This document shows, in pieces, positions 5,954 to 39,307 of a stretch of DNA of 52,725 bases (position 1 is its first letter; each line of letters opens with the position of its first letter). The notes under the pieces are model-generated. The model saw only the letters and a program-made list of their open reading frames with translations. It was not told the origin of the DNA and did not search any database. The stretch is taken from NCBI GenBank assembly GCA_964583795.1, contig CAZOWX010000010.1, positions 1-52,725 on the forward strand, read 5' to 3'. The translations under genes and the position numbers were made by a program. Source of the DNA: an uncultured Pseudomonadales bacterium. Its GTDB lineage: Bacteria; Patescibacteriota; Microgenomatia; UBA1400; PJMF01.

Positions 5954-6002
5954 GTGGTGGTGATCAGTTGTCAGTTGTGAGTTATTGGTTGCTAGGTTGA
6001 GA
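5954..6002. repeat. 7-nt-phased degenerate tract (7 units)
   Basis: gtggtgg tgatcag ttgtcag ttgtgag ttattgg ttgctag gttgaga, starting directly after the stop codon of the 5087-5953 ORF. Confidence 0.8.
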
Positions 6003-11063: not shown

Positions 11064-11093
11064 AAGGTGGTTGTAACCGGATGATGTGTATTT

Positions 11094-11128
11094 AGTTAAT
11101 AGTAAACAGTTAACAGTGAATAGTTAAC
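11094..11128. repeat. 7-nt-phased tract (5 units)
   Basis: agttaat agtaaac agttaac agtgaat agttaac, lying between the rpsB start and the folD stop. Confidence 0.8.
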
Positions 11129-12056: not shown

Positions 12057-12133
12057 GTGGGTATTATAACGTAATTATTTGGGAAAATTGATTGATGTGG
12101 TTGAATTGACTACAAGTTCTCTTTTTCAACTCG

Positions 12134-12161
12134 CTACAAGCTACAGGCCTCAAGCTGCCCT
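12134..12161. repeat. 7-nt-phased tract, CTACAAG type
   Basis: ctacaag ctacagg cctcaag ctgccct. Confidence 0.75.
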
Positions 12162-12169
12162 CCTTCGTA

Positions 12170-12240
12170 CTTGAAATGATAACTTGACTGTTAGTCAGGT
12201 TTTCATTCAGGTTACTTTCGGCGGGCGAGCAAGTGACACG
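12170..12240 (+). repeat. ~70-nt structured repeat element, copy A (candidate small RNA or MITE core)
   Basis: About 77% identical by hand alignment to 34612-34681. It folds as nested hairpins, and the substitutions between copies stay paired only as G-U on the plus strand. Confidence 0.6.
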
Positions 12241-12289
12241 TGCCGTTCCCTTTCAAAGAGCTCTATTTGTCAGTAAATGCAACCAGTGA

Positions 12290-12375
12290 CCATTAATCCA
12301 CAATCCATAATCTACAATCTACCGTGTTCCGCGTAGCCTCTAGCGAAGTGGGATCATCCATCATCCATTATCATT
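12290..12375. repeat. 7-nt-phased tracts plus a solo copy of the cassette arm TCCATCATCCATTATC
   Basis: ccattaa tccacaa tccataa tctacaa tctaccg (12290-12324). The segment 12357-12372 is an exact 16-nt match to the right arm of the 24.2-24.6 kb cassette and overlaps the nfo stop codon. Confidence 0.8.
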
Positions 12376-13228
12376 GAATCAGTTTTTTCAGCCGGTCGAT
12401 GTTGGCTTTGTCAGGGCCGTGACCATCAAGTCCAGGGACTTCAAGAATCAAAGGGATTTGTTCGAGTTGTTTGAGGTTCAAAAAATGCTCAAGATCTTCT
12501 GTCGGAATACTGCCTTCACCAAGATTTTCGTGTCGATCTTTGTGTGAAGCAAAGGGATCGCGACTATCGTTGACGTGCACACACCCAAGTGATGCCCACA
12601 AATTAAATTTTTCAATTTCATCTTCTGCAATTCCAATTGATCCATCTGCATACTTTGATTTAGGATTCAGCTGATATCCCGCACAAAACGCGTGGCAGGT
12701 ATCAAAACACCACCCCAACCGTTTTGATTTCACTTGGTCCATGAGCCATCGAATATCTTCCAAATCTGTGGTGAGTTTACCGTTCTGGCCAGCTGAGTTT
12801 TCGATCAAAAATGTTGAATTTTCTGGAGAATTTTCTAAAATTGTGGTAATACTTTTCGCAACTTGGTTGCGCATTTTTTCCCAGCCTCGTCCTTGGTGAC
12901 TACCTAGATGGACGACTACACCGCTTCCCTTGATTTCGCTATCAAATTTCAGCTCATAAGTTAGTGCTGCAATCGATTTTTTCAGTGATTCTGGATTATC
13001 AGTTGCTAAGTTGACTAAGTACAATGCGTGAGTCACGAGTGGGGTGACTGGAAAATCCTTTTGAGCTTCAAATAGTTTTTTGGTATCAAAACTTTCGAGT
13101 GACGGTTTTTTCCATACTCGTGGACTAGCAGAAAAAATTTGAGCGCAGTTGGCTCCGATTTCATCTGCCCGTTGTATAGCTTTATGCAGTCCCCCTGCAG
13201 CACTGACGTGAGCTCCGAGTTTTCGCAT
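12371..13228 (-). CDS. nfo: endonuclease IV (AP endonuclease)
   Basis: GAHVS.AGG, Q.FS.SPR.W, the HA.YL.NLA series, HLGSH, NSAGQ, FDTCHAF and H.NDS. This is the TIM-barrel metal-site pattern. Confidence 0.93.
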   Translation of the reverse strand: MRKLGAHVSAAGGLHKAIQRADEIGANCAQIFSASPRVWKKPSLESFDTKKLFEAQKDFPVTPLVTHALYLVNLATDNPESLKKSIAALTYELKFDSEIKGSGVVVHLGSHQGRGWEKMRNQVAKSITTILENSPENSTFLIENSAGQNGKLTTDLEDIRWLMDQVKSKRLGWCFDTCHAFCAGYQLNPKSKYADGSIGIAEDEIEKFNLWASLGCVHVNDSRDPFASHKDRHENLGEGSIPTEDLEHFLNLKQLEQIPLILEVPGLDGHGPDKANIDRLKKLIQ

Positions 13229-13751: not shown

Positions 13752-15104
13752 TTACCAGGCAAATAATGGAAACTCTTTGGTCATCTGTTTCACTTCGTCA
13801 AAAATACTCAGTAGCACTTTATCTTTCTGAATATCTTGAATAAATGTGTTGACGAATGATTGGCGGTCCAGTTTATTTTCTGGTAATTCGTATTGCTTCA
13901 CATGGTTGGCTACTTGAGCAATCCATTTGGCAATCTGTTTCATCTCCCTCACTTTCATACCACGTGTGGTGACGAGTGGAGTGCCCAGACGAATTCCTGA
14001 TGGATAAAACGGTGATACTGGTTCATTGGGAATGGTATTGCGGTTGGCATAGAGTCCTGCTACATCCATAGCGACTGCAACCTGTTTTCCCAGACCGTAC
14101 CCTAACTGCGTAAGATCGATCAACATCAAATGCGTTTCCGTGCCATTGCCAACCAGTTTTAGTCCTTCACTTTGTAGTGCTTCGGAGAGCGCGTTGGCGT
14201 TGGTACGAATTTGCTTCGCGTAGCGGGTGAAGGCTTTGGTGCTGGCTTCTTTGGCAGCGATGGCGATAGCAGCGGTTGTGGCGTTGTGCGGCCCTCCTTG
14301 CATCCCAGGGATAATGGCAGCATTTAATTTTCTGCCCAACTGAGGATCACGATCAAGTCCACGTTGTGTGGCGAGAATCATCGCTCCACGCGGTCCGCGG
14401 AAAGTTTTATGCGTAGTACTCATGATGACATCAGCGTACGGTACTGGTGAGGGATGTTCTCCTCCGATCACCAGGCCGGTAATATGAGAGATATCACAGA
14501 CCAGCCATGCACCAACTTCATCAGCAATGTCTCGAAATGCTTTAAAATCCAGCACAAAAGGATAAGCGGTATTCCCTGCCATGATCACCTGTGGTTTATG
14601 TTTTTTGGCAAGTGTCCGGACTTCGTCAAAATCAATGCGAGCTTTCTTGTTGAGTCCGAACTGGATGCTATTATAAAAACGACCCGACGCTGTTACTTTG
14701 GGATGACCGTGAGTTAAATGTCCACCCATTACCAGTTTAAGCCCCATCAAGGTCTCACCTGGATTCATCAGGGCAAAATAAATCGCTGCATTGGCTGGTG
14801 AGCCTGAGTACGGTTGCACATTAACGTAGGGGACATTGAACAATTTTTGTACTCTATTTATCGCTTCGGTCTCAATTTTATCAACAATCTGACTGCCTTC
14901 GTAATAGCGGGCATCACTGTAGCCTTCTGAGTATTTGTTTGATAAACAAGAGGAAAGCACTGCAGAAACTTCCGGTGAGGCGTTGTTCTCTGAAGGGATC
15001 AGTCCAATTTTTTGTTTTTGTCGTTTTTCTTCCGCTTTGATAAGCGAAAAGATAGTATCTTGCTTTGGTTTTTGGGTGTTGGTTTTTGGTTGTTGGTTTA
15101 CCAT
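13752..15104 (-). CDS. glyA: serine hydroxymethyltransferase
   Basis: LIPSEN..SPEV, YSEGY...RYY.G, GGHLTHG and TTHKTFRGPRGA (PLP lysine). Confidence 0.96.
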   Translation of the reverse strand: MVNQQPKTNTQKPKQDTIFSLIKAEEKRQKQKIGLIPSENNASPEVSAVLSSCLSNKYSEGYSDARYYEGSQIVDKIETEAINRVQKLFNVPYVNVQPYSGSPANAAIYFALMNPGETLMGLKLVMGGHLTHGHPKVTASGRFYNSIQFGLNKKARIDFDEVRTLAKKHKPQVIMAGNTAYPFVLDFKAFRDIADEVGAWLVCDISHITGLVIGGEHPSPVPYADVIMSTTHKTFRGPRGAMILATQRGLDRDPQLGRKLNAAIIPGMQGGPHNATTAAIAIAAKEASTKAFTRYAKQIRTNANALSEALQSEGLKLVGNGTETHLMLIDLTQLGYGLGKQVAVAMDVAGLYANRNTIPNEPVSPFYPSGIRLGTPLVTTRGMKVREMKQIAKWIAQVANHVKQYELPENKLDRQSFVNTFIQDIQKDKVLLSIFDEVKQMTKEFPLFAW

Positions 15105-18788: not shown

Positions 18789-21700
18789 TTACTTGAGCAT
18801 CTCTTTAACCTGTTTCTCTAACTGGTCAGTCCAGTTGACAGTGTAGGGTAAGATAACGCGTTTTGGCATATCTCCGTTGGGGATGATCAGGGTGACTTGA
18901 TGTTCACCTTCCGATGATTTGAGCAGACTTCCCAATTGTTGTAAGGTTGCTTTTTGAGTTTTTCTGGGGATAAAAATTTCATGCCGCAGCTCTTGGGGAA
19001 CTGCGTCCAACAAAGACTCTTCTGGTACCGTAATTTTTTCAGCAACCAGTTGTAACTCGTCATCGCGAGAATCAACTTTGGCTTTCAATAAAATCACGCT
19101 TTCGTTTTTTAAATATTTTTCAAAATCTTTGAATAACTTTGGGAACACCACAAATCGAATCTTGCCACTTTGATCGTTTAAAGTCCCAAAACACATCTTG
19201 TCTTGGTTCTTTTTGGTCAGTACCAACTTAAAATCAGTGATAAAACCGCCAAACAAAAAGATTTGTCCGACATGAATGTGAGCATCGAGATCGCCAATTA
19301 ATTTGGTGGCTTGGGCAGCAACATTTTTGAGTGCTTTCCCCATTGGATGGTCAGTTAAATATATGCCCAGTAGCTCTTTCTCAAATGACAACAACTCTTG
19401 TTTTGGATACTCAGGAAGTGAGGGAAATGTGTCTTTGACTTCACGCACGTCATTTTCTTGTCCCGCAAACAAAGTGTCTTGTCCCTCATCGTCTGACTGA
19501 AATTGTGTTGCTTTGGTGCGAATATCATCAAGTTGAATCAACATCGAAGATCGAGTGGCAAACTGATCAAAAGTTCCGACTTTTATCAAACTTTCAAGAA
19601 CTTTTTTGTTGACCTTTCGACTTTCCGTACGCATCAAAAACTCAGTGAACGAGCGAAACGGTCCATCGGCGCGTCGCTCAATGATATGTTCGATGGCAGC
19701 AACACCCACATTTTTTATGGCATGTAGACCAAAACGAATCGCATATCCATTGAGTGAATCCGCATTTTTTTCAATGGTAAAGTTGTTACTGGATTGGTTA
19801 ATGTCTGGTGGCAATACAAAAATTCCCAGCTCTTTGCATTCCTGAATACCTTGTTCGACTTTGAGTTCACGGTTGGCACTATTTGCATTGGCTTCTATCG
19901 ATAACATAGCACACATGTACTCAACTGGATAATTGGCTTTGAGCCACCCAGTTTGGTAGGCGATCATGGCATAACAGGCACTGTGCGCTTTTCCAAAACC
20001 ATACCCGGCAAATTTTTCGATGAATCCCCATACTTGATCAATGGTTTTTTGATTGTAATTGAGCTTTTTCGCTCCCTCGTCAAATTTCTTTTTCTCTGCT
20101 TTCATGATCTCAATCTTTTTCTTTCCGATTGCTCGGCGCAACTCATCAGCTTGTCCCAATGAGTAACCTGCCATGACGTTAGCTACCTGCATACATTGTT
20201 CTTGGTACAACAAAATACCGTAGGTATCTTTCAATACTGGTTTAAGATCGATATGAGGATATTCAATCGTGTCAGGCGATAGTTTCCCTTGGACAAATGA
20301 GTCAATCAGGTCCATTGGTCCGGGACGGTATAAAGCGACCATAGCGGTAAGATCGGAAAAGACCGAGGGGCGCAAATTGCGTGCTAGTCGACGCATGCCG
20401 GCAGACTCCATCTGAAAAATTCCAGTGGTTTGGCCTCTGGTAATCATGTCATACACTTTTTTATCATCGAGGGCGATACTTTGTAGATCAATTTCTTTTC
20501 CCGTAGTACTTTTAATAACTTTGATGGCCTCTTCAAGGATGGATAAATTGCGCAGTCCCAAGAAGTCCATTTTCAGCAGGCCAATTGCGTCAGGGCTAAC
20601 ATTCAAATCCAGGACTCTCATGTCATATTGGGTCACGATTTTGCCTGATTTACTATCTTTTTGAATTGGAGTGTACTGGGTGAGCGCTTCATCAGAAATA
20701 ATCACTCCGGCAGCGTGTACACTCGTGTGGCGTGCGTTACTCTCTACACCCATAGCGAGATCAATCAGTTTTTTATACTTTTTATCTTGGTAATACGTCG
20801 CGAGTTCAGGAACTTGTTTGAGCGCATCTTTGATGTGAACAGTGTGGCCTTGGTGTGGTTCGGGGATGAGCTTAGCGATGTGATCGGCTTCGGTGTACTC
20901 AAACCCCAATACCCGACCAATATCACGAATGGCTGCTTTACTTTCCATCCGACCAAAGGTGATGATTTGAGCGACTTTGTCAGCCCCATATTTCTGAGTG
21001 GTGTACGCAATGACTTCTTCACGTCGGGTATCAGCAAAGTCAATATCGATATCAGGAGTTGAAGCGCGCTCAGGATTCATGAACCGTTCAAATGGTAGGT
21101 CATGGACTATGGGATCGATCGAGGTGATATTGAGCGAAAATGACAAAATTGATCCTGCAGCACTGCCGCGACCTGGACCCACCGAGATACCATTTTGTTT
21201 TGACCAGTTGATGAAGTCTTGAACAATTAAAAAGTATGTTAAGTACCCTTTATCTGCAATAACATCAATTTCGTAGTTAAGGCGTTTGGCTACTTTAGTG
21301 ATCAAATCAGTCTCAGGATCAATTTCAGCCCATGGTTGGCCTTTTGCTGTTGTGGCATGAGCTGAAACACCTGGATAAAATTTTTCTAATCGAGAAAAAG
21401 CCATCTTACGAAGAAATGATTCCGTTGTCTCGCCTTCGGGAATGTCATAGTGGGGGAAGATGACTTTACCCAGCGGAATTTCTAAGTCACATTGGTTAGC
21501 AATCTTGATAGTATTTTCAAGTGCATCGGGGTATTTGGCGAATGCATTTTCCATCTCTTGTGTTGATTTGATATAAAAATCGGGTGAATCAAGCATGGTC
21601 ATTCGGTTCGTGTCAGTGACCAGTTTTCGTGTTTGGACACAAAGCAGAGCATCCTGAGCTTCAGCATCAGTTGCGTTGACATAGTGGTTATCATTGGTCG

Positions 21701-22304
21701 CCACGAGAGGAATACCCAGTTCACGACTGAGTTGAATTTGGAGTTTGGTGAGCTCTTTAAGTTCTTCTATGTTGGGGTGATCTTGAATTTCAATATAAAA
21801 CCGACCTTCAAATTTTTCAAAATAAAGTTGCAGTTTTTGTTTCGCTGCTTCGTACTGATTATTACGCAGCAAATTATTAAAAATACTATTCATGCAGCCA
21901 CTGGTAGCAATGACTCCCTTTGAGTGGGTGAATAAAACTTCTTCATCAATTCTTGGTTTATAGGAAAACCCTTCCAAATGCCCAATACTAGTGAGTCTCA
22001 TTAAATTTCGATACCCTTCTAAGTTCATTGCTAACAATGTGATGTGAAATTGATCTGAACCTGGGCGAGGTTGTTTATTGAGTCGTGACTCTTTGGACAT
22101 GTAGGCTTCCAATCCTACAATTGGCTTGATGCCCATTGCTCGAGCTTTGTTGTAAAAATGCACTGCTCCGTGCATGGCTCCATGATCAGTGAGTGCCAAG
22201 GCAGGTTGATTGAGTTCCTTGGCTTTTTCAAGCATGTCAGGTAACTTGCTCAGACCATCAAGCAGTGAGTACTCAGAGTGGTTATGAAGGTGAACGAATG
22301 ACAT
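18789..22304 (-). CDS. dnaE: DNA polymerase III alpha subunit
   Basis: PHP N-terminus MSFVHLHNHSEYSLLDG, then GPGRGSAAGS, PDIDIDF and the FGKAHSACYA blocks. The start is set at the ATG at 22304. Length is normal, so no intein. Confidence 0.97.
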   Translation of the reverse strand: MSFVHLHNHSEYSLLDGLSKLPDMLEKAKELNQPALALTDHGAMHGAVHFYNKARAMGIKPIVGLEAYMSKESRLNKQPRPGSDQFHITLLAMNLEGYRNLMRLTSIGHLEGFSYKPRIDEEVLFTHSKGVIATSGCMNSIFNNLLRNNQYEAAKQKLQLYFEKFEGRFYIEIQDHPNIEELKELTKLQIQLSRELGIPLVATNDNHYVNATDAEAQDALLCVQTRKLVTDTNRMTMLDSPDFYIKSTQEMENAFAKYPDALENTIKIANQCDLEIPLGKVIFPHYDIPEGETTESFLRKMAFSRLEKFYPGVSAHATTAKGQPWAEIDPETDLITKVAKRLNYEIDVIADKGYLTYFLIVQDFINWSKQNGISVGPGRGSAAGSILSFSLNITSIDPIVHDLPFERFMNPERASTPDIDIDFADTRREEVIAYTTQKYGADKVAQIITFGRMESKAAIRDIGRVLGFEYTEADHIAKLIPEPHQGHTVHIKDALKQVPELATYYQDKKYKKLIDLAMGVESNARHTSVHAAGVIISDEALTQYTPIQKDSKSGKIVTQYDMRVLDLNVSPDAIGLLKMDFLGLRNLSILEEAIKVIKSTTGKEIDLQSIALDDKKVYDMITRGQTTGIFQMESAGMRRLARNLRPSVFSDLTAMVALYRPGPMDLIDSFVQGKLSPDTIEYPHIDLKPVLKDTYGILLYQEQCMQVANVMAGYSLGQADELRRAIGKKKIEIMKAEKKKFDEGAKKLNYNQKTIDQVWGFIEKFAGYGFGKAHSACYAMIAYQTGWLKANYPVEYMCAMLSIEANANSANRELKVEQGIQECKELGIFVLPPDINQSSNNFTIEKNADSLNGYAIRFGLHAIKNVGVAAIEHIIERRADGPFRSFTEFLMRTESRKVNKKVLESLIKVGTFDQFATRSSMLIQLDDIRTKATQFQSDDEGQDTLFAGQENDVREVKDTFPSLPEYPKQELLSFEKELLGIYLTDHPMGKALKNVAAQATKLIGDLDAHIHVGQIFLFGGFITDFKLVLTKKNQDKMCFGTLNDQSGKIRFVVFPKLFKDFEKYLKNESVILLKAKVDSRDDELQLVAEKITVPEESLLDAVPQELRHEIFIPRKTQKATLQQLGSLLKSSEGEHQVTLIIPNGDMPKRVILPYTVNWTDQLEKQVKEMLK

Positions 22305-22358
22305 TGGCTGTAGTGTAATGAGAACTGGTAATAGTTGCAAGTTTCAAGATTTTTGGTT

Positions 22359-22393
22359 GCTACAAGCTTCAAGCTACAGGCTACAAGTGACAC
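22359..22393. repeat. 7-nt-phased tract, CTACAAG type (5 units)
   Basis: gctacaa gcttcaa gctacag gctacaa gtgacac. Confidence 0.8.
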
Positions 22394-22500
22394 AAGCTTT
22401 TCCTTTACAATCAGCGTCCCTTGTCAGTGAATATTGTCATTTTTAAATAAATTCCAATAAAGAAATAACGCTGAATCGACAGCAAGAAAAATAAAGAAGG

Positions 22501-22526
22501 CGTCATCCTGAACTCGTTTCAGGATC
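22501..22526 (+). repeat. CGTCATCC-hairpin repeat, TGAA-stem variant
   Basis: cgtcatcctgaa ctcg tttcaggatc. The stem is ATCCTGAA/TTCAGGAT. Confidence 0.8.
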
Positions 22527-22709
22527 TATACGCAGAAAACATGAAAAGTAGTTTCTCTTCTTCTGAAGAAGAGCCGGACTATCTGGTCGACAGGAGCATC
22601 TGTTAAGAATTTTTAAAAAAATCCTCCATGATTAAGAGATGAGTTTGCCAATAGAGACAAGATTTTAATACATAACTAATTACAATCTATCCGTCAACTA
22701 TCAGTTAAA

Positions 22710-24209
22710 CTAATTTGTTAATTGTTTTTCTAAAGTTGTCTTTACACTTTGTGGATCGACTTTCTTACCGAGCTTTCTCATCACCTGACCCATCAAAAAG
22801 CCAATGATTTGCGTTTTTCCAGCTTGATAGTCAGTGACGGCTTTTGGCTGTTCTTTAATAATAGAAGCAATAATTGTTTCAAGTTCACTCGTATCGACTG
22901 TATCAACGTGGGTAAATTCTTCAAATGTTTTGAGTAACTTGTCTGGACTCTCTAGCAACTGCGTTGCAAGTTTTTTGTTGACTAATAAATTAGCAAGTTT
23001 ATTGACATCTTGTTTGTTTTGCACAAAAAGTTGAGCGATAGCTTCGAACTGTTGCGTTTGAGTTGGAGTTACCGTGAGTACTTGCGCATAGCGTTTTTCA
23101 ACTTGATACTCTTTTCCCCATCGTTCAACGATCTGATCGGGAAGCTCTGGGAGTTGACTCTTGAGTTCATCAATTTGTTTTTGAGTGAACAGTATTGGAG
23201 GTAAATCAGGGTCAGGGAAGTAACGATAGTCTTCAGCATCTTCCTTTGACCGCTGGGAGAAAGTTTCGCTTTTTTTTTCATTCCAACCACGAGTTTCCTG
23301 CGTTGGTACTTCTCCTTTTGCAAGGATTTTTGATTGACGATCAATTTCAAATGCAACTGCCTTTTCTAGAAACCCAAACGAGTTGATATTCTTTACCTCA
23401 ACTTTATACTTGGGTAAATCTTCTTCAGTGAGACGCTTGTTGCTTGTGGCTTGTAGCTTGAAGCTATCCAAGAGCGAGATATTTGCCTCCAAGCGCAGGC
23501 TTCCCTGTTCCATGTTGCAATCAGAGATGTCCAGGAATCGCAAAATTTGACGCAGTTTTTTACCATACGCTTTTGCATGTGCTGCACTGTGGATGTCCGG
23601 TTCAGTTACAATTTCTACTAGTGGGACGCCTCCTCTATTGAAGTCAACGAGACTCACTTTTTGTTCTACAATTTTTTCAGTAGGTCCTGAATATTCATGT
23701 CTCAAATTTTTTGTATTTTCTTGTGGAGTTCGACTTGACTTTTCAGGATGACGGTTTGCAGAATTAACCGAGATAGTTTGATGAATCAATTTTCCAGTAT
23801 CTTCTTCCAAGTGAATACGGCGAATACGCACCGGCCCTTCTTCTGTCTCCAGAATGCCATGTTCACAAAACGGAATATCGTACTGACTAATCTGATAGCC
23901 TTTTGGCAAATCAGGGTAGAAGTAGTTTTTTCGATCAAACTTGGAAAACAAGTTGATTGTACAGTTGAGCGCCAGTCCTAACTTAATGGTCCACTCAATA
24001 GCCTTTTTATTGGCAACTGGCAGCGCTCCAGGCATGCCAAGACACACTGGGCATGTGTAGACATTCGGTTTCGGAGCGTGGAAGGGATCATTTTTACAAC
24101 CACAAAACATTTTGGAATTAGTCTTTAGTTCGGCATGAACTTCCATACCGATTATTGGGGTATAGATAATGGATGATGGATGATGGATGGATGACTTTTT
24201 ATTTTTCAT
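22710..24209 (-). CDS. gatB: Asp/Glu-tRNA amidotransferase subunit B
   Basis: IIGMEVHAEL.T.SKMFCGC, FDRKNYFYPDLPKGYQISQ, HLEEDTGK, VDFNRGGVPLVEIVTEPD, DYRYFPDPDLPP. Its start forms an ATGA overlap with the stop of the upstream four-helix-bundle gene. Confidence 0.95.
   Translation of the reverse strand: MKNKKSSIHHPSSIIYTPIIGMEVHAELKTNSKMFCGCKNDPFHAPKPNVYTCPVCLGMPGALPVANKKAIEWTIKLGLALNCTINLFSKFDRKNYFYPDLPKGYQISQYDIPFCEHGILETEEGPVRIRRIHLEEDTGKLIHQTISVNSANRHPEKSSRTPQENTKNLRHEYSGPTEKIVEQKVSLVDFNRGGVPLVEIVTEPDIHSAAHAKAYGKKLRQILRFLDISDCNMEQGSLRLEANISLLDSFKLQATSNKRLTEEDLPKYKVEVKNINSFGFLEKAVAFEIDRQSKILAKGEVPTQETRGWNEKKSETFSQRSKEDAEDYRYFPDPDLPPILFTQKQIDELKSQLPELPDQIVERWGKEYQVEKRYAQVLTVTPTQTQQFEAIAQLFVQNKQDVNKLANLLVNKKLATQLLESPDKLLKTFEEFTHVDTVDTSELETIIASIIKEQPKAVTDYQAGKTQIIGFLMGQVMRKLGKKVDPQSVKTTLEKQLTN
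23683..23754 (-). mobile_element. 72-bp palindromic-repeat copy inserted in frame within gatB
   Basis: The termini ggtcctgaa...ttcaggatgacgg match the repeat at 34805-34855 (gatcctgaa...ttcaggatgacgac). The segment encodes RHPEKSSRTPQENTKNLRHEYSGP, 24 codons. Confidence 0.6.
24161..24195. repeat. left arm of cassette 1 (7-nt-phased tract containing a 19-bp perfect IR arm at 24162-24180)
   Basis: tatagat aatggat gatggat gatggat ggatgac. It lies within gatB codons 5-16. Confidence 0.9.
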
Positions 24210-24574
24210 TTTTTTTCTAACTTAAACTTTCTAAAAGCTCTAATTCTTTTAATAAGTATTACAATTTCATTAATCAATTCATCGTTTCGAAGCAATTGCA
24301 TTTTCTGACAGAAGTATAATTGTGACAAACATTCATATGCCGAATTAATTGCGATTTTTATATATTTGGTTTCCTCTTTAATCGATTCGCAACCACTTCC
24401 CTCAGCTATATTGCTGGAAATTGATAAACTTGATCGATTCATCTGGTCCCCAATTGATTTTTTATGTTCAATTGAAAATCGTTGGGTTAAATTAAAAATT
24501 TTAACTGCAAAATCGAGTGAGTTTTGCCAAATTTCTAATTTTTCAAAAGGTGCTCCCATCGGTCCATCATCCAT
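24206..24574 (-). CDS. four-helix-bundle protein (23S rRNA intervening-sequence protein / Avd-like family)
   Basis: FEKLEIWQNSLDFAVKIF.L...F........DQM.RSS.SISSNIAEG.G..S.KE...Y..IA..S..E. The start is more likely M6 at 24559, which leaves the IR arm outside the ORF. Confidence 0.85.
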   Translation of the reverse strand: MDDGPMGAPFEKLEIWQNSLDFAVKIFNLTQRFSIEHKKSIGDQMNRSSLSISSNIAEGSGCESIKEETKYIKIAINSAYECLSQLYFCQKMQLLRNDELINEIVILIKRIRAFRKFKLEKK

Positions 24575-24595
24575 TATCTATGATCTATATATCTA
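24561..24595. repeat. right arm of cassette 1 (19-bp perfect IR arm at 24563-24581)
   Basis: ggtccat catccat tatctat gatctat atatcta. The segment tccatcatccattatctat is the reverse complement of 24162-24180. Confidence 0.9.
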
Positions 24596-24596
24596 A

Positions 24597-25100
24597 TTAG
24601 TATATTTTTATATTATCTTGAATATCTGAAATTGTGATATTTGATTTTGTATTTTTATTTTTGATATACGTTTCGATATCTTTTTTAATTCCTGGTATTG
24701 TCAGTAAATCGAGTGCTTCTTGTGGTGTGACCCAGCGAAACTCTGAATGCTCATGCGATAATGTTGGCTTTTCTATTTGTGTTTCGCAGATGAAAGTGAA
24801 GCCATATAGTTCGGCATCAACATGCTTACTTCCCCGATAAATGTGCCAAATTCGATTCAATTTTTTTACTTTTAAATCAGTAATTCCGGTTTCTTCAAAG
24901 ACTTCTCGCTTCAACGCCGTTGCCAGCTCTTCATGATGGTCGATACGACCATAAATCATTTCCCAACTGCCGTGATTCACTTCTGTTGTAGCGCGTTTAC
25001 CGAGCAGAATAGTATCTGTCCCTTTTAGCTCGATTATTGCCCCAACCCCGATCATGAATGAGCCGATTTTTCGAATTTGATCTCTCATACTGATATCCAT
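24597..25100 (-). CDS. NUDIX hydrolase
   Basis: Nudix box GRIDHHEELATALKREVFEETGI. Confidence 0.9.
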   Translation of the reverse strand: MDISMRDQIRKIGSFMIGVGAIIELKGTDTILLGKRATTEVNHGSWEMIYGRIDHHEELATALKREVFEETGITDLKVKKLNRIWHIYRGSKHVDAELYGFTFICETQIEKPTLSHEHSEFRWVTPQEALDLLTIPGIKKDIETYIKNKNTKSNITISDIQDNIKIY

Positions 25101-25163
25101 CTATTCTCTATAATCCCTCACCTATTATCTATACATCCATCTTCCTCCACTCATTCCACTGTG
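25101..25163. repeat. 7-nt-phased tract (9 units) spanning the gatA-nudix spacer and the last 11 gatA codons
   Basis: ctattct ctataat ccctcac ctattat ctataca tccatct tcctcca ctcattc cactgtg. Confidence 0.8.
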
Positions 25164-27023: not shown

Positions 27024-27058
27024 GCTGCGAGCTTCAAGCGACAAGCTGCAGGCAACTT
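27024..27058. repeat. 7-nt-phased tract, CTACAAG-related (5 units)
   Basis: gctgcga gcttcaa gcgacaa gctgcag gcaactt. Confidence 0.75.
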
Positions 27059-29794: not shown

Positions 29795-32392
29795 TTATTT
29801 CTTTTCCAATTCTAGTTGAGCATTTTTAATTCCAACACTCACCGTAATTGCTTCATCATCAACCCGATCAAGCATGATCAGTGACAGGGGATCAAGCACA
29901 TCAATTTGAATGACTCGTTTGAGTGGGCGGGCGCCAAAGACGGGATCGTAGCCTTTGTCAGCTAGATACTTCTTTGCTGATTCAGTTATTTCCAGCTCAA
30001 CTCCTTGATCCTTAAGGCGCTGTTGCAAGTCTTCGAGTTGAATCGCCACGATCGATTCAATATGCTTGGCACTGAGTGCCTCAAAGAAAATGACTTGGTC
30101 GATGCGATTGAGAAACTCAGGTTTAAAAGAGTGATGTAATAAATCCCAGATCGATTTTTCTAAAGCTTGCTTATCCTTGTCCGATAATGTATCGGACTTC
30201 TCGTACGCTTCTTGGATTAAGTGAGCGCCAACATTACTGGTCATAATGATCACCGTATTTTTAAAGTCAACGGTTCGACCTTTGCCATCAGTCACTCTTC
30301 CTTCATCAAAAATCTGTAAAAATGTATTGAAAATTTGGGGATGAGCCTTCTCGACTTCATCAAGCAACAAAATTGAGTAGGGCTTGCGCCTCACTGCTTC
30401 GGTGAGTTGGCCGCCTTCTTCATAACCGACGTACCCTGGTGGGGCACCGATAAGTCGAGCGACTGAGTGTTGCTCAGAGTACTCGCTCATGTCAATTCGG
30501 ATAATCGCTCGCTCATCACTCAATAAAATCTCAGCCAAGGCTTTGGCGGTTTCAGTTTTCCCCACTCCAGTAGGACCAAGGAACAAAAATGTGGCTAGTG
30601 GTTTGCCTTGTTCAGCGATCCCAGTGCGAGCGCGACGAACGGCATTGGCCACTGCCTTGAGGGCTACTGCTTGACCAACAACTCTTTTTGATAAGTCATC
30701 CTCCAAGTGAATCAACTTTTGTGACTCACTTTTCACTAGGCGCTTGACCGGAATACCAGTCCAGCGTGCTACTATGGCAGCGATATCATCTTCTCCAACT
30801 TCTTCTTTAAGGAGTTTTTCTTCAACGGGAATGTGCTCCCATTGTTTTTGGGCCTGTGAAAGCTTTTTTTCTGCTTCAGGAATTTTGCCGTATTTGATCT
30901 CGGCAGCTCTATCGAGCTCAACATTGCGCTCGGCAATTTCCAGCTCACTGCGCAATTGTTCGATTTGTTGACGCTGCGATTGTACGGCTTGTAAAATCTG
31001 TTTTTGTTTATCCCAGCGGGACCGTGTTTGTTGCAGCTCTTCTTTTAAATTAGCAAGCTCATGCTCGATCTCATTTTTACGAGACTTTGCTTCTGGTGAT
31101 GATTCTTTCTTTAGGGCCTTTTCTTCAATTTCCAGTTGGGTGACTTTTCGCGCGAGTGTGTCGATGGTAATTGGGTCGGATTCTGTCTCGATTTTCAGTG
31201 CTGAAGCGGCTTCATCAACCAGGTCAATAGCTTTATCCGGTAAGAAGCGATCTTGGATGTAACGATCCGATAAAACTGCAGCTGCAACCAGTGCATCATC
31301 GGTAATTCGAATTCCATGATGAACTTCATACTTTTCTTTGAGTCCTCGTAAAATTGAGATTGTATCCTCCACTGTGGGTGCGTAAACCGGAACTGGTTGA
31401 AAACGTCTTTCGAGCGCGCTGTCTTTCTCAATATACTTACGATACTCATTTTGAGTGGTGGCACCAATGACTCTCAGGGCTCCGCGAGCCAGAGCGGGCT
31501 TCATCATGTTCCCGGCGTCGGTACTGCCCTCCCCTGCTCCTGCTCCAACAATCGTGTGCAGTTCATCGATGAATAGAATCACATTCCCTTCTGACTTGAC
31601 CGCTTCCTCAATGACATTCTTCATGCGCTCTTCAAACTCCCCCCGAAATTTTGCTCCAGCGAGTAATGATGAAATTTCGAGTGTCAAAATAGTTTTGTTT
31701 CTCAGTGACTCTGGGACGTCTCCTTGGACGATTCGAATGGCCAGCCCTTCGACTACCGCTGTTTTTCCGACTCCTGGTTCGCCAACTAAAACAGGATTGT
31801 TCTTGGTTCGGCGAGACAGTACCTGCATTACCCGGCGAATTTCTTGTTCACGACCAATGACTGGGTCAAGTTTCCCTTCGGTTGCCAAAGCGGTCAGGTT
31901 CGTTGTGTATTTTTCTAAGATCTTGTAGTTTTGATCGGAACTTTCGGGGTCTTGAGTGGCGTTTTGGTGGTGTGCCATAATTTTCTCCTTGATGCGCTCA
32001 TACGTGACGTCAAATGAGTCTAATATCTTTTTACTGTCTATGTCTGCTTTCGTCAATGCGAGCAATAAAATATCTTGGCTAATATATCCTTGATTGAGGG
32101 AGTTGGCGTTTTGTTGGGCTTCTTGGATGACACGAATAAGAGAAGTTGATGGTTTTGGTTCTGGTTGGGTTTCTGTAGTGGGGAGACTTTCTAACTTCTC
32201 ATGAATTGTCTGCTTGAGGCGCTGAGTGTCTTGAACTAGCTCATTGAGAAAATCTTGACTAATTCCTGAATTTTCAACTAACGCTTGCAATAGATGGAGG
32301 TTCGTGACCTCGCTGTGTTTTGCCTCTTGCGCGCTTTGGGCAGCTTCATTAAGAGTAAGTTGACTTGATTGGGTGAGTTTGGGCGATATCAT
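29795..32392 (-). CDS. clpB: ATP-dependent chaperone ClpB
   Basis: Two AAA+ modules ([18 protein letters not shown]) separated by a long coiled-coil M-domain. The start is set at the ATG at 32392; the TTG at 32410 lies inside the repeat tract. Confidence 0.97.
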
Positions 32393-32396
32393 AATT

Positions 32397-32431
32397 AACT
32401 CAAAGTTCAAAGCTCATAACTCAAAATTTAA
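32397..32431. repeat. left arm of cassette 2 (7-nt-phased)
   Basis: aactcaa agttcaa agctcat aactcaa aatttaa. The segment 32418-32429 (aactcaaaattt) is the exact reverse complement of 32847-32858. Confidence 0.8.
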
Positions 32432-32458
32432 CCACATGTTACCAATTTTTAAAAACAA

Positions 32459-32818
32459 TTACAGTGATCGTTTCATGGTCTTAATGCTAGATGCGAGCAT
32501 TCTTGCTAGTTCTTGAGCTTCATTTAGGAGTGGCGTAATTTTATCTTTATCAGCAAGATTTGCCTGTTCAAATAATTCTAGCCAATAAACGGTTTCGTTG
32601 GCACTTTTTAATGAAATTTCATAGTAACGAATAAATTCTTTTTTTGAACTTGAAGAAATTGCTTCATGAATATTGGCACCAATGCTAGTGCCAGAGCGAA
32701 GCAACTGATCTGATAATTTCCAGTAGATTGCTGAGTTAGGAAGTTGTTTAAAAAAAGAGATCACGTTTAGCGAAAATTGAAATGACCTCTCCTTAAGTAC
32801 ATTTTTCTTTTGATTCAT
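32459..32818 (-). CDS. four-helix-bundle protein (23S rRNA IVS protein / Avd-like family)
   Basis: ERSFQFSLNVISFFK.L.......LSDQLLRSGTSIGANI.EA.SS.SKKEFI....ISLKSANET.YWLEL. ATG at 32818; the ORF track extends to a TTG at 32833. Confidence 0.85.
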   Translation of the reverse strand: MNQKKNVLKERSFQFSLNVISFFKQLPNSAIYWKLSDQLLRSGTSIGANIHEAISSSSKKEFIRYYEISLKSANETVYWLELFEQANLADKDKITPLLNEAQELARMLASSIKTMKRSL

Positions 32819-32836
32819 TTCGTTTTTTACCAATAT

Positions 32837-32878
32837 TTGGAGCTTGAAATTTTGAGTTTTGAATTATGAGTTATGCGA
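32837..32878. repeat. right arm of cassette 2 (7-nt-phased), overlapping the htpX stop
   Basis: ttggagc ttgaaat tttgagt tttgaat tatgagt tatgcga. Confidence 0.8.
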
Positions 32879-33782
32879 TGCCTCTAAGAGCTTTAATTCT
32901 TTCTTCAACTGGAGGGTGGGTGTCAAACAATCCCGCAAACCAACTACGTCCGCCAGAAACATTTTTTAGAGGATTGGAAATATACAGATGAGCGGTAGCT
33001 TTATTGGCCGCTTCCAGCGGTTCTTGATCGGCTGAAATTTTTTCCAAAGCACTGGCTAAGCCTTCAGGATATTTGGTTATTGCTGCTCCTGAGGCATCTG
33101 CCAAGAACTCTCGACGGCGAGAAATGGCCAGTTGGATGAGTTGCGCAATAAGTGGAGATAAGAGTGCTAAAACTAATCCAGCAATGAAAAAAATGATTTG
33201 GAGTTGTCCAGCTCCTGAGTCTTTGTTACGACGGCCACCACCCCATGATGACATTCGTAACATCCAGTCTGCCATCAGAGCAATCAGTCCAACTAAAATG
33301 CTGACAATACTCATGAGGCGAATATCGTAGTTTTTAACGTGAGAGAGCTCATGAGCAATGACACCTTCAAGCTCAGTTCTGTTAAGTCGACTTAAAATTC
33401 CGGTAGTAGCACAGATCACCGCGTGATTTGGATCCCGACCGGTGGCGAATGCGTTCATCGCTGTGTCGTCAATCACATAAAGCTTCGGCAGTTTCATTTG
33501 TTGACTCATGCACAAGTTTTCGGTGACGGTATAAAAATCAAAAAACTCTTCACGCGTGGCTTCTCGAGCTCCAGAAATACCCAAGATAATTTTGTCCGAG
33601 AAGTAATACGAGAAGAAAGAGGTGATTCCAGAAAAAATAAAAGCGTATCCTACGACATCCAGCCCAAATCCAAAACCTCTGGCCATGATGTATGCTGCCA
33701 GCGCAATGAAGGTCACAAACCCTACAATAACAAGGGTAGACTTTTGTTTATTGGAATCGACTTGAGAGTAAAAATTTGCCAT
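32871..33782 (-). CDS. htpX: M48-family zinc metalloprotease HtpX
   Basis: HELSHVKNYD (HExxH), TM helices and a C-terminal HPP..ERI. Confidence 0.93.
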   Translation of the reverse strand: MANFYSQVDSNKQKSTLVIVGFVTFIALAAYIMARGFGFGLDVVGYAFIFSGITSFFSYYFSDKIILGISGAREATREEFFDFYTVTENLCMSQQMKLPKLYVIDDTAMNAFATGRDPNHAVICATTGILSRLNRTELEGVIAHELSHVKNYDIRLMSIVSILVGLIALMADWMLRMSSWGGGRRNKDSGAGQLQIIFFIAGLVLALLSPLIAQLIQLAISRRREFLADASGAAITKYPEGLASALEKISADQEPLEAANKATAHLYISNPLKNVSGGRSWFAGLFDTHPPVEERIKALRGIA

Positions 33783-33911: not shown

Positions 33912-34502
33912 TTACAGCTCTACTTTTGGATCTTTCATCTCACTGGAACTGACTTCGATATGCTCACCTGTGGTTGGTGTGGCCAGTCCTGCTTCTGCCT
34001 TAAAGCCAAACATTCCAGCACTGATATTACTTGGGAAAACCATTAACTTTTGATTGTATGTTTGAGACAGATCGATAACTGTTCGGCGAGCATACATCAG
34101 TTTGTCAGCCGTGTCTCGCAGCTCATTCATGAACTGGGCTACGGTAGCATCAGATTTGATTTGAGGGTTTGATTCCACTAAAACGTTTAATCGTCCCATC
34201 ACTCCCTGCAAATCACTGACCGCTTTATCGACATTTTTCATGGAACCAGAGTCACTGGCAATCTGCACTGATTTTCGAGCATCAGTCAGCATTTGAAAGA
34301 TGTCTTTTTCTTGCTTCATGTAGCCTTTGACTGAAGCTTGAAGATTGGGGATCAAACTGGCTTGACGTTTCAGTTGGTTGCCAATTTCTTGAATGCTGGC
34401 AACAATCCGAGTTTTGAGTGTTTGCAGCGAGTTGTAGATGGAGATGATGTAAAAAGCGATGGCAACTCCAGCGACGAGTAAGATAATAGGTAAACTAGTC
34501 AT
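33912..34502 (-). CDS. lemA: LemA family protein
   Basis: N-terminal TM followed by YNSL..L...V......I..QL.RQA.LIPNL. This is the typical LemA-HtpX pairing. Confidence 0.9.
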   Translation of the reverse strand: MTSLPIILLVAGVAIAFYIISIYNSLQTLKTRIVASIQEIGNQLKRQASLIPNLQASVKGYMKQEKDIFQMLTDARKSVQIASDSGSMKNVDKAVSDLQGVMGRLNVLVESNPQIKSDATVAQFMNELRDTADKLMYARRTVIDLSQTYNQKLMVFPSNISAGMFGFKAEAGLATPTTGEHIEVSSSEMKDPKVEL

Positions 34503-34611
34503 AGTGACTCCTTATTTTTGTTCGATATTTTACTAAAGATGTACTTTGTATTATACGCTTTTTGAGTGAGTTCAACAACATTACATAAGCTTCAGGCTAC
34601 CATCCTACGCG

Positions 34612-34681
34612 CTTGATATGAAAACTTGATCATTTGTTGGGTTTCATTCAGGCTGCTATGGCGGGTACGGCAAGTGACACG
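34612..34681 (+). repeat. ~70-nt structured repeat element, copy B
   Basis: cttgatatgaaaacttgatcatttgttgggtttcattcaggctgctatggcgggtacggcaagtgacacg. It is the counterpart of 12170-12240. Confidence 0.6.
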
Positions 34682-34804
34682 AGCTATTTCTTTTGCTTAC
34701 TTTACCTGTCTGTACGCCACTCCTAAGAACGCAACAACTCAACAACATTACCTACTGAAGGCTTTACTACTATTGGATTGAGCAAAGCAAGTGGTCTGAC
34801 TTTA

Positions 34805-34855
34805 GATCCTGAATCCGTCTTGCTCGTTCCTCGCTAGACTGTTCAGGATGACGAC
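34805..34855 (+). repeat. CGTCATCC-hairpin repeat, TGAA-stem long-loop variant
   Basis: gatcctgaa-(28 nt)-ttcaggatgacgac. Confidence 0.8.
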
Positions 34856-34926
34856 TTTTTACTTTTCTTGTTTTTAAAATGTATTGTTACCCCAGACACT
34901 AATTCCTAATCGCTCGTCACTAGTTG

Positions 34927-34996
34927 CCAATCCACTATCCACATTCTACATTCCACATTCCATTATCCATTATCTATGCGTCTATAAATCCATCAT
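34927..34996. repeat. longest 7-nt-phased tract (10 units), includes a solo cassette-arm copy
   Basis: ccaatcc actatcc acattct acattcc acattcc attatcc attatct atgcgtc tataaat ccatcat. The segment 34961-34978 (cattatccattatctatg) matches the cassette-1 right arm. The tract runs into the dinB stop. Confidence 0.85.
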
Positions 34997-39272: not shown

Positions 39273-39307
39273 CCTGAAACCTTAGACCTGACACCTGAAA
39301 CCTAGCA
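39273..39307. repeat. 7-nt-phased tract (5 units) abutting the tRNA-Thr 3' end
   Basis: cctgaaa ccttaga cctgaca cctgaaa cctagca. Confidence 0.8.

Follow-up and report, generated by a model that had tools for sequence, protein, structure and literature searches.

In the 52,725-nt contig analysed here (CAZOWX010000010.1; this whole stretch is referred to below as the window), which is part of a Patescibacteria-like genome, the junction between the genes htpX and clpB is occupied by a small cassette. We show that this cassette is a discrete inserted unit, composed of a PF05635 gene preceded by an array of about five heptamers and followed by an array that is the reverse complement of the first, and that it is the same type of element as the intervening sequences (IVS) of 23S rRNA that carry an open reading frame (ORF), found here at a junction of an mRNA operon. 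A second cassette of this kind (cassette 1; that at the htpX-clpB junction is named cassette 2) lies between a NUDIX gene and gatB. On the basis of their anatomy and of the rRNA precedent, we believe that the most plausible explanation, to which we assign a probability of about 0.55, is that such an element is read through together with its host genes and that its arms pair in the transcript, which would close off the insert and bring the neighbours together again.

Cassette 2 fills the htpX-clpB junction completely, from stop codon to start codon, and has the orientation of its neighbours, lemA, htpX, the cassette ORF and clpB being all encoded on the minus strand (Table 1). On the mRNA strand, its 5' arm reads CATAACTCA TAATTCA AAACTCA AAATTTC AAGCTCC, and the first unit, TAACTCA, opens with the stop codon of htpX. 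The 3' arm reads TTAAATT TTGAGTT ATGAGCT TTGAACT TTGAGTTA or, in another register, ...TTTTGAG TTATGAG CTTTGAA CTTTGAGTTA, followed by ATT and then by the ATG of clpB; it corresponds to the 5' arm reverse-complemented and shifted in register by one unit. The initial annotation of this region had described the left flank (32397-32431; on the plus strand, aactcaa agttcaa agctcat aactcaa aatttaa), its inverted counterpart on the right (32837-32878), an exact 12-nt core common to both (32418-32429 and 32847-32858) and arms that reach the htpX stop and the clpB start, and each of these features was found where it had been placed. The ORF starts at an ATG (32816-32818), and a second in-frame start, TTG at 32833, falls within the arm. 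A repeat search recovered 24-nt arms that were 79-83% complementary, in several registers because the units are tandem, and Tandem Repeats Finder called a period of 7 on both sides of the ORF. Repeat searches also agreed with the earlier description of two cassettes sharing the arm-ORF-inverted arm design with arms of different sequence.

The cassette-2 protein matched PF05635 (E 2.5e-26, 92.4 bits for a cut-off of 33.8) and TIGR02436 (E 3.3e-31, 107.7 bits for a cut-off of 24), and the protein of cassette 1 matched the same two models (E 7e-26 and 2e-24, respectively), which agrees with the previous assignment of both ORFs to one family. The two paralogues are only distantly related (identity of about 35% over 66 aa), and the window has no other member of the family. 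For the cassette-2 protein, no further Pfam family was found at E <= 10, no catalytic family was matched and there was no match in the PADLOC defence models at E <= 1. One search with this protein returned 2363 relatives; among the matches listed, the top ones came from metagenome assemblies and, if they bore a name, from Patescibacteria. Its AlphaFold model showed four helices (pLDDT 92.5), and the closest structures were 2RLD (BT_0352 of Bacteroides thetaiotaomicron; TM 0.86-0.91) and then 2GSC (XCC0516 of Xanthomonas campestris; TM about 0.8). Both crystallised relatives contain five chains, and a homopentameric toroid has been described for Xcc0516 (PMC4990558). Many database homologues (P0008, P0013, P0022, P0065 and P0079, among others) have been called from a start upstream of or inside the 5' arm and carry low-complexity N-termini of the types MSKLKSQNQNLN and MLTQSSNLKTQNQNAK (for example, MSKLKTQNQN), which are probably translated arm sequence and not real protein.

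The flanks of cassette 2 are AT-rich and repetitive, and it had been foreseen that shuffled sequences might explain the inverted match and that no extended duplex might form. This objection fails. The local alignment of one flank with the reverse complement of the other scored 30 in cassette 2, as compared with 16.9 +/- 2.7 in dinucleotide shuffles (2 of 2000 reached 30), and the score of 41 obtained for cassette 1 was reached by none of 2000 shuffles. When the same geometry was slid over the whole window, the two cassettes ranked first and second of 1409 positions. Upon folding of the cassette RNAs, the arms paired into a long-range stem around the ORF in both the minimum free energy and the centroid structures of the two cassettes. 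The arm duplex of cassette 2 had 28 pairs and -21.8 kcal/mol (2 of 500 shuffles were equally stable) and that of cassette 1 had 24 pairs and -37.2 kcal/mol (none of 500), the folding z for the whole cassette being -1.98 and -4.61, respectively. An artefact of chance or low complexity is ruled out by the shuffles and by the window-wide and gene-matched controls. Equally rejected was the identification of the 4HB (four-helix-bundle) gene as the avd gene of a diversity-generating retroelement: although Avd (4DWL, 8UB7) resembles the cassette-2 model (TM 0.72-0.80, with weak E-values), in that it is a pentameric four-helix bundle of equal length that belongs to a ribonucleoprotein (8UB7), it went undetected by sequence or profile, and neither a reverse transcriptase nor template and variable repeats were found near either cassette. 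We give practically no weight to these two explanations.

The cassette design proved to be general for PF05635 genes. We studied 80 loci around relatives of the cassette-2 protein in contigs taken from one genome per species (set 1: Patescibacteria, Bacteroidota, Verrucomicrobiota, Acidobacteriota, Firmicutes, Atribacterota, Omnitrophota and others) and 80 loci around relatives of XCC0516 (set 2: Proteobacteria, Planctomycetota, Nitrospirota, one archaeon and others), and considered an inverted repeat significant when the flank score was above that of at least 98% of the controls of the same geometry from the same locus. Significant inverted repeats flanked the gene in 63 of the 76 testable loci of set 1 and in 57 of 77 of set 2, that is, 120 of 153 together, most of them with a period of 7, which gives strong support to the cassette class suggested in the initial annotation. 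In set-1 loci, scores of at least 28 were obtained for 74% of the 4HB genes versus 3.8% of 292 other genes (Mann-Whitney p 2e-28), and the 11 exceptions among the latter included four further 4HB genes and several host genes situated between two cassettes. The mean lag-7 autocorrelation of the arms was 0.42 upstream and 0.47 downstream (0.26 in controls), the best lag was 7 or 14 in about two thirds of the loci versus 11% of the controls, with a few loci showing period 8 or 9, and period 7 was present upstream of the gene in 51 of 76 (set 1) and 51 of 77 (set 2) homologous loci. Arrays usually had four to five units, with a median inverted-repeat length of 35 nt. The heptamer itself varied by lineage (AAAACTC, AAAAGTC, AATTACG, GAATTAT, GGATAGT, AATGCAC, AGTGGGC, GTGACGA, GGGAATG and others); despite this variety, the two arms of a single cassette were about 87% reverse-complementary.

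Geometry was assessed in 55 loci whose arms were clear and in which a gene had been called on either side. Here the 5' arm followed the upstream stop codon at a median distance of 0 nt, and a median of 8 nt separated the 3' arm from the downstream start; in 42 of these loci the cassette had the orientation of both neighbours, the expectation being about 56% given a background in which 75% of adjacent gene pairs are co-oriented. The purine-rich strand of each arm ran 5' to 3' toward the ORF in 88 of 93 cassettes (p 1e-20). Since an inverted repeat is identical when read from either strand, this polarity distinguishes inside from outside and not the strand of the ORF, and it provides the cargo gene, in either orientation, with a leader rich in purines or in A. 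A telomere-like interpretation of the arms was discarded, as the purine/G-rich strand points inward and not outward. In invertons, a short segment lies between inverted repeats of 20-40 bp, and recombination between the arms could in principle flip the cargo gene as an on/off switch, an explanation that would suit both this anatomy and the roughly 15% of cassettes that are opposed to a neighbour. We consider it very improbable, because co-orientation with both neighbours exceeds expectation, no invertase was found nearby, ten independent assemblies of one cassette displayed a single orientation throughout, and the arms are only about 85% complementary.

Some loci of the survey departed from the simple arrangement. 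In several of them, two 4HB cassettes within 1-3 kb occupied consecutive junctions of a single operon (L009 3960-5650, L174 2501-5332, L059 3529-5713 and L055 3977-7181); in L009, a LexA-like and an exonuclease-like gene each lay between arrays, and in L174 the two cassettes had differing arm types, as in the window. In two Verrucomicrobia loci (L030 3891-4425 and L036 3891-4410), the 4HB genes were flanked by near-perfect inverted repeats of 35-39 nt that were not heptamer arrays. This repeat, GTCCAGCCTCCGCAGGAGGCTGGATATCGTTTCCTATGT, itself contains a palindrome. The 4HB family also occurs between arms of another kind.

Cassette 2 had been described as interrupting a lemA-htpX-clpB stress cluster, and the comparison of this junction across relatives bears this out. 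Whereas lemA-htpX was kept in 79 of 80 HtpX relatives, clpB followed htpX directly in seven relatives (HtpX 61-69% identical), with a gap of about 2-150 nt and no 4HB gene. In one locus (L106 4400-4449), the htpX-clpB gap holds a solo array, CCATTTA CCATTTA CCAGTTA CCAGTCC, that extends up to the ATG of clpB. The closest homologues of the cassette-2 protein (57-64% identity) sit among unrelated genes, wedged in the same manner, their neighbours being giant LamG proteins, PAS and HAMP sensor proteins, or AbiEii beside a polysaccharide synthase; their arms are of the ACTCAAA/TTTGAGT type, with outer ends like TAACTCA...TGAGTTA. Copies from Atribacteria and Omnitrophota were 82% identical in protein and 77% in nucleotide sequence over 420 nt, with homology covering only arm-ORF-arm, and the same restriction was observed between Bdellovibrio and Bacteroidota copies. 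Two Chitinophagaceae had a cassette in common, located at sites orthologous to each other. Moreover, the 6-mer similarity of the arms tracked protein identity (Spearman 0.30; Mantel test, 0/500). The confined homology and this correlation show that arm and gene travel together, across phyla, and the confined homology and the adjacency of htpX and clpB in relatives show that the cassette is a discrete inserted unit. The mobility proposed in the initial annotation is thus supported, if indirectly, by cassettes that are 57-82% identical in unrelated contexts, some of them in different phyla, and whose homology stops at the arms.

At the gatA-gatB junction, the inverted repeat of cassette 1 is built of GGATGAT-type units, and the start codon of gatB sits between the stop of the cargo gene and the 3' arm. 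A 15-residue N-terminal extension of GatB (MKNKKSSIHHPSSII) is encoded by the spacer and this arm (24161-24209). Of 80 metagenomic relatives, nearly all align with this GatB only from about residue 16 onward, which indicates that cassette 1 gave a new start and a new N-terminus to an essential gene. In 31 metagenomic relatives gatA is directly upstream of gatB, whereas in the window the NUDIX gene and cassette 1 (920 nt) lie between them. Other relatives have at this junction a major facilitator superfamily transporter or small ORFs of 90-150 aa, lacking a 4HB gene or obvious arms, and these differing inserts mark it as a general insertion hot spot and not a cassette-specific target. The NUDIX gene (24597-25132 region) is itself bracketed by two arrays of the cassette-1 type that run in the same direction (25114-25132 and 24557-24589).

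In agreement with a paired structure, the match between arms depended on the order of their units: permuting the heptamers of one arm worsened it (median z 2.06; p <= 0.05 in 47% of loci), from which it follows that the order of variant units is mirrored between the arms. In 14 pairs of related cassettes, we counted 12 double changes that kept complementarity, as compared with 1.4 expected under independence, although the cassette pairs lack independence from one another and a shift of register may look like a double change. The same pairs displayed 45 one-sided changes and 3 non-complementary double changes. Judging from the mirrored unit order and the double changes in these sequences, arm complementarity appears to be maintained.

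Relatives with empty sites, homology between phyla that is limited to the cassette, closely similar cassettes surrounded by unrelated genes and a symmetric arm complementarity free of sense-strand G·U bias would also be displayed by a DNA-level mobile element, the arms of which would be terminal inverted repeats or single-stranded DNA (ssDNA)/cruciform hairpins (of the attC, repetitive extragenic palindromic (REP) or IS200/IS605 kind) recognised by an enzyme encoded elsewhere, with the 4HB gene as cargo or accessory. In line with this, 4HB genes are among the strain-specific genes of Arthrospira (PMC8700078), and in old proposals by Ralph and McClelland and by Burgin et al., as cited in PMC4990558, IVS were regarded as transposition remnants or mobile elements. 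Nevertheless, we regard such an element as rather unlikely. There was no target-site duplication in 49 loci, where the mean best direct match was 1.55 nt versus 1.67 +/- 0.19 for the null. No transposase, integrase or reverse transcriptase adjoins either cassette (the neighbours are LemA, HtpX, ClpB, an ABC transporter, NUDIX, GatA and GatB), the 4HB gene is the only ORF in the element, and no long direct repeats were found around the cassettes. Since arms differ within one genome, a single enzyme is unlikely unless it reads shape or period. A protein present on 34 contigs (P0117) was at one genomic site, with invariant arms, in all the places sampled and hence provides no direct evidence of transposition, and no two near-identical copies of a cassette were found at different sites. 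Integron cassettes are promoterless single genes in the orientation of the host promoter, with an imperfect inverted repeat whose structure is conserved over its sequence. The elements described here are similar to these (ORF plus attC) in being promoterless single-gene units with an imperfect inverted repeat, but two arms bracket the gene, there is no integrase or attI, and they are scattered in operon junctions instead of being arrayed.

The closest known counterparts are the IVS of 23S rRNA. That of Coxiella is 428 nt long, is inserted in helix 45 and carries the S23p ORF preceded by three tandem GACAGAT heptamers, the copy number of which varies by strain; its 28-bp terminal stem is cut by RNase III in vitro (Warrier et al., PMC4990558). 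In addition, 23S_rRNA_IVP ORFs have been found in rRNA insertions of the Candidate Phyla Radiation (PMC11270868). The cassettes share with the IVS of Coxiella burnetii and Leptospira the PF05635 protein, a size of about 430-480 nt, a stem of 24-28 bp that encloses the ORF, the heptamers upstream of it, the absence of a transposase and, presumably, transcription from the host promoter. They differ in lying in an mRNA operon between protein genes and not in an rRNA helix: Rfam found only four tRNAs in the window, and the neighbours of cassette 2 are a Peptidase_M48 and ClpB. Furthermore, both arms are heptamer arrays, unlike in the Coxiella IVS as described, the ORFs are intact and conserved whereas that of Coxiella is reported to be decaying and probably untranslated, and an excision by RNase III, if it took place as in rRNA, would harm the downstream gatB in cassette 1.

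By analogy with these IVS, the cassette would be transcribed by read-through from the host operon; no convincing sigma-70 promoter or terminator and no Rfam family were found for it. The arms would then pair as an imperfect duplex of 24-28 bp, closing off an insert of about 400 nt as a large hairpin, and this pairing would place the htpX stop and the clpB start within a few nucleotides, so that the insertion could be tolerated as rRNA IVS are. The predicted arm duplex is of the type that serves as RNase III substrate in rRNA IVS, and cutting would be plausible for cassette 2; it could not be obligatory for the class, because in cassette 1 the cut would fall inside gatB. The purine-rich 5' arm may act as an A-rich leader for the cargo gene, and the cassette would spread as a unit, also between phyla, leaving no target duplication. 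Several observations weigh against this model. The folding energy of cassette 2 is barely better than that of the shuffles (z -1.98), and its arm duplex contains a 7-nt bulge. In cassette 1, a cut of the stem would part gatB from its start codon. There was no excess of sense-strand G·U-compatible mismatches between arms (48 vs 69 and 38 vs 47 of the mirror type), for which reason we claim no RNA-specific selection, and a DNA or ssDNA hairpin, or the copying of one arm from the other, fits the mismatch pattern equally well. Lastly, pairing explains neither the tandem heptamers and their fixed polarity nor the solo arrays that are found at other gene ends or far from 4HB genes. Because pairing alone does not account for the strict 7-nt phasing, we propose that this phasing probably reflects a second function, namely binding by the encoded pentameric protein.

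Heptamer arrays were indeed found also in the absence of the gene. The cassette-1 motif occurred at three other sites of the window with no more than 3 mismatches (0 expected), always on the gene strand and at or just past a stop codon, and for the cassette-2 arm type a single further match, a weak one, was obtained. A second array type, GCCTGTAGCTTGTAGC, had 9 matches versus 0.17 expected, and its arrays lie about 20-200 nt upstream of operon starts (a folD-like ORF, ORF 18789-22340 and gatC). The copy inside gatB is paired in inverted orientation with that at 22359-22388, about 1 kb away, and the GatB loop at the former is longer than what we take to be typical of GatB. Among the eight strongest arrays of the window, four are intergenic and three more overlap the end or start of a gene, the non-coding share being about 14%. 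In the surveyed loci, arm 12-mers recurred outside the cassette within the same 8-kb locus about 11 times as often as in cross-locus controls. In species genomes, perfect (CTCAAAA)x3 arrays were mostly from cyanobacteria, Bacteroidota and Chloroflexi, and 86 of 88 had no 4HB gene within 120 nt, as judged with a hidden Markov model (HMM) built from one subfamily that missed at least one divergent 4HB gene (L269). The idea that perfect arm-type arrays are mostly cassette arms was therefore rejected. An inverted partner was present for 19 of 67 of these arrays, always in the order T-rich...A-rich, and most of these pairs were hairpins that enclosed no ORF, the loop being of 0-60 nt. Hairpins of this kind, (AGTTTTG)n - loop 0-60 nt - (CAAAACT)n, were seen in cyanobacteria, Bacteroidota, Chloroflexi and others (loci L265, L273, L300, L303, L316, L324, L344, L348, L351 and L365), and their arrangement was opposite to that of Patescibacteria cassettes with the same heptamer in 19 of 19. 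Heptamer arrays of the arm type are thus not confined to cassettes, and the relation is asymmetric: the gene is nearly always accompanied by arrays, and arrays are often without the gene.

Table 1. Cassettes, host genes and heptamer arrays located in the window
Feature	Position	Strand	Remarks
Cassette-2 ORF (119 aa, four-helix bundle)	32459-32818	-	PF05635 (23S_rRNA_IVP) / TIGR02436
Cassette-2 5' arm (mRNA strand)	32836-32875	-	About five 7-nt units; holds htpX stop TAA 32871-32873
Cassette-2 3' arm (mRNA strand)	32396-32431	-	Ends 4 nt short of clpB ATG
htpX (Peptidase_M48), upstream host gene	32871-33782	-	Pfam; stop is the first triplet of the outermost heptamer
clpB, downstream host gene	29795-32392	-	Pfam ClpB; start ATG 32390-32392
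lemA	33912-34502	-	Pfam LemA
Cassette-1 5' arm, TATAGATCATAGATAATGGATGATGGACCGATG	24557-24589	-	Starts 7 nt past NUDIX stop; overlaps earliest possible ORF starts
Cassette-1 cargo gene	24206-24574	-	PF05635; second ATG 24557-24559; stop overlaps gatB start (ATGA)
Cassette-1 3' arm	24161-24193	-	Within gatB frame; 19 nt perfect, 33 nt at 85% vs 5' arm
Solo array, cassette-1 arm type, ATAGATAATAGGTGAGGGA	25114-25132	-	gatA stop/NUDIX junction; direct orientation vs cassette-1 5' arm
Solo array, cassette-1 arm type, AATGATAATGGATGATGGA	12357-12375	-	Overlaps stop of ORF 12371-13228
Solo array, cassette-1 arm type, ATAGATAATGGATAATGGA	34959-34977	-	Opens longer array 34930-34977, just past IMS-family polymerase stop
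Second array type, GCCTGTAGCTTGTAGC	12133-12148, 22359-22388, 27031-27053	-	
Second array type, GCCTGTAGCTTGTAGC	23435-23464	+	Inside gatB
AGTTAAC x5	11093-11120		Between two co-oriented genes
TTGGTTG x5	15064-15099		First codons of ORF 13752-15104
CCTGAAA x4	39273-39303		Beside tRNA-Thr
TCAGTTG x3	5964-5983		Just past stop of ORF 5087-5953

Three long intergenic regions of the window (12057-12370, 34503-34992 and, truncated, 22341-22709) have in common a conserved block of about 110 nt that, in the minus-strand sense, reads ...GC.CGTGTCACTTGC..(12).. CCTGAATGAAA.CC..AC.A....TCAAGTT.TCAT.TCAAG..CG.AGGA.GG.AGC.TGA.GC. The block is preceded by a cassette-1-type array in the first two regions and only by a weak heptamer-like run in the third, and GCTTGTA-type heptamers follow it in all three. 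There was no Rfam match for this block, which may be a repeated promoter or leader module, a small RNA or a miniature inverted-repeat transposable element.

Solo arrays are reminiscent of the intergenic heptamer repeats described in other bacteria. Xanthomonas genomes contain 70-75 pairs of inverted GGGAATC arrays each (Rehm et al., PMC4692102), Geobacter metallireducens has dozens of paired inverted arrays of 7-9-nt repeats (24 + 21 + 8 pairs, for example at proB/proA) that were interpreted as sites of unknown global regulators (Aklujkar et al., PMC2700814), and the TAACTGA arrays of Beggiatoaceae end just ahead of start codons (MacGregor, PMC4679880). Like the cassette arms, these repeats and the short tandemly repeated repetitive (STRR) sequences of cyanobacteria are made of 7-nt tandem units, about four per array, often abut start or stop codons and often form inverted pairs; in those papers they are taken as G-quadruplex formers, regulator sites or translational signals, and many arrays are solo. 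We found relatives of XCC0516 in Pseudoxanthomonas and Xanthomonas that are flanked by GGGAAT-type arrays, the arms being weak in the one Xanthomonas locus. The portions of the heptamer-repeat papers covered by our text search make no link to a 4HB gene between the pairs, and our literature search, the coverage of which was incomplete so that an earlier description is possible, yielded no paper tying heptamer pairs to a 4HB gene outside rRNA.

In REP and REPIN/RAYT (REP-associated tyrosine transposase) systems, the small gene is nearly always located between inverted short repeats and most copies of the repeat are far from it. REP repeats are intergenic, form hairpins and leave no target duplication. 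A tentative alternative is therefore a protein-repeat system, either REPIN/RAYT-like or made of a regulator and its operators, in which the pentamer binds the heptamers, one unit per subunit, in RNA, ssDNA or double-stranded DNA. Each paralogue would have its gene bracketed by the arrays cognate to it, which would serve autoregulation or self-propagation, the solo arrays and the hairpins that enclose no ORF would be further targets or offspring, and the inverted arms would be two opposed binding sites. Such a system is compatible with the stem and with cassette mobility. It would explain why the heptamers of different phyla differ in sequence but not in their period of 7, and why the cassette-1 motif is present at three other gene ends and arm 12-mers are enriched elsewhere in the same locus. 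The asymmetry between genes and arrays is REP/RAYT-like, although the count of 86 in 88 CTCAAAA arrays has to be read with the limits of the HMM, which came from one subfamily and missed L269. Arrays of 4-5 units with a 35-nt median repeat would suit the five chains of both solved relatives, a correspondence that is numerology at present, and the structurally closest protein to have been characterised, Avd, belongs to a ribonucleoprotein (8UB7). Likewise, arm type is co-inherited with protein lineage, and the two paralogues of one genome have differing arm types, but common descent of the cassette explains co-inheritance equally well. The Geobacter arrays, read as global-regulator sites (PMC2700814), also fit. 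On the other hand, the window contains arrays of types that have no cognate 4HB gene within the 52 kb seen, and independent binding sites do not require the mirrored unit order or the compensatory changes. The likeness to REPIN/RAYT extends to the gene flanked by inverted repeat copies, to the lack of target duplication and, judging from the CTCAAAA arrays, perhaps to arrays lying mostly away from the gene; yet RAYT is a Y1/HUH transposase with a known catalytic motif, whereas PF05635 proteins are helical bundles of 120 aa with no known catalytic activity, and the cassette repeats are tandem heptamers that differ in sequence for each paralogue, with no sequence relation shown.

PF05635/TIGR02436 is a very large family of unknown function, apart from its distant relative Avd of diversity-generating retroelements, and the rRNA IVS after which it is named have raised questions of origin and mobility since the early 1990s. 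The IVS with an S23p ORF was known; its occurrence at operon junctions, the generality across the family, the filling of the junction and the polarity of the arms appear not to have been described together. The armed cassette is found between the genes of ordinary operons in Patescibacteria, Bacteroidota, Proteobacteria, Acidobacteriota, Planctomycetota, Firmicutes and others, and it brings together in one object such scattered observations as the heptamers of the Coxiella IVS, the GGGAATC pairs of Xanthomonas, the regulator sites of Geobacter and the IVP genes in cas operons. The latter have been reported wedged between cmr3 and cmr2 (Zhang and Ye, PMC3936711), and we speculate that the tandem repeats of the arms could contribute to the apparent CRISPR linkage of 4HB genes. 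For annotation, the arms often yield spurious low-complexity N-termini (MSKLKTQNQN...) and can add residues to neighbouring proteins, as in GatB. The cassette model makes testable predictions: the stem, its cleavage by RNase III and the binding of the heptamers. More doubtful still than the tentative alternative above is its broadest form, in which PF05635 proteins and tandem heptamer arrays would be one system, with one subunit per unit and each gene between its cognate arrays, and the genomic excess of heptamers (STRR, GGGAATC, TAACTGA and those of Geobacter) would largely represent its targets or offspring. If this were true, we would be dealing with a REPIN/RAYT-like symbiosis or with a very widespread network of post-transcriptional operators, and the 23S rRNA IVS would be just one landing place of a protein-array system.

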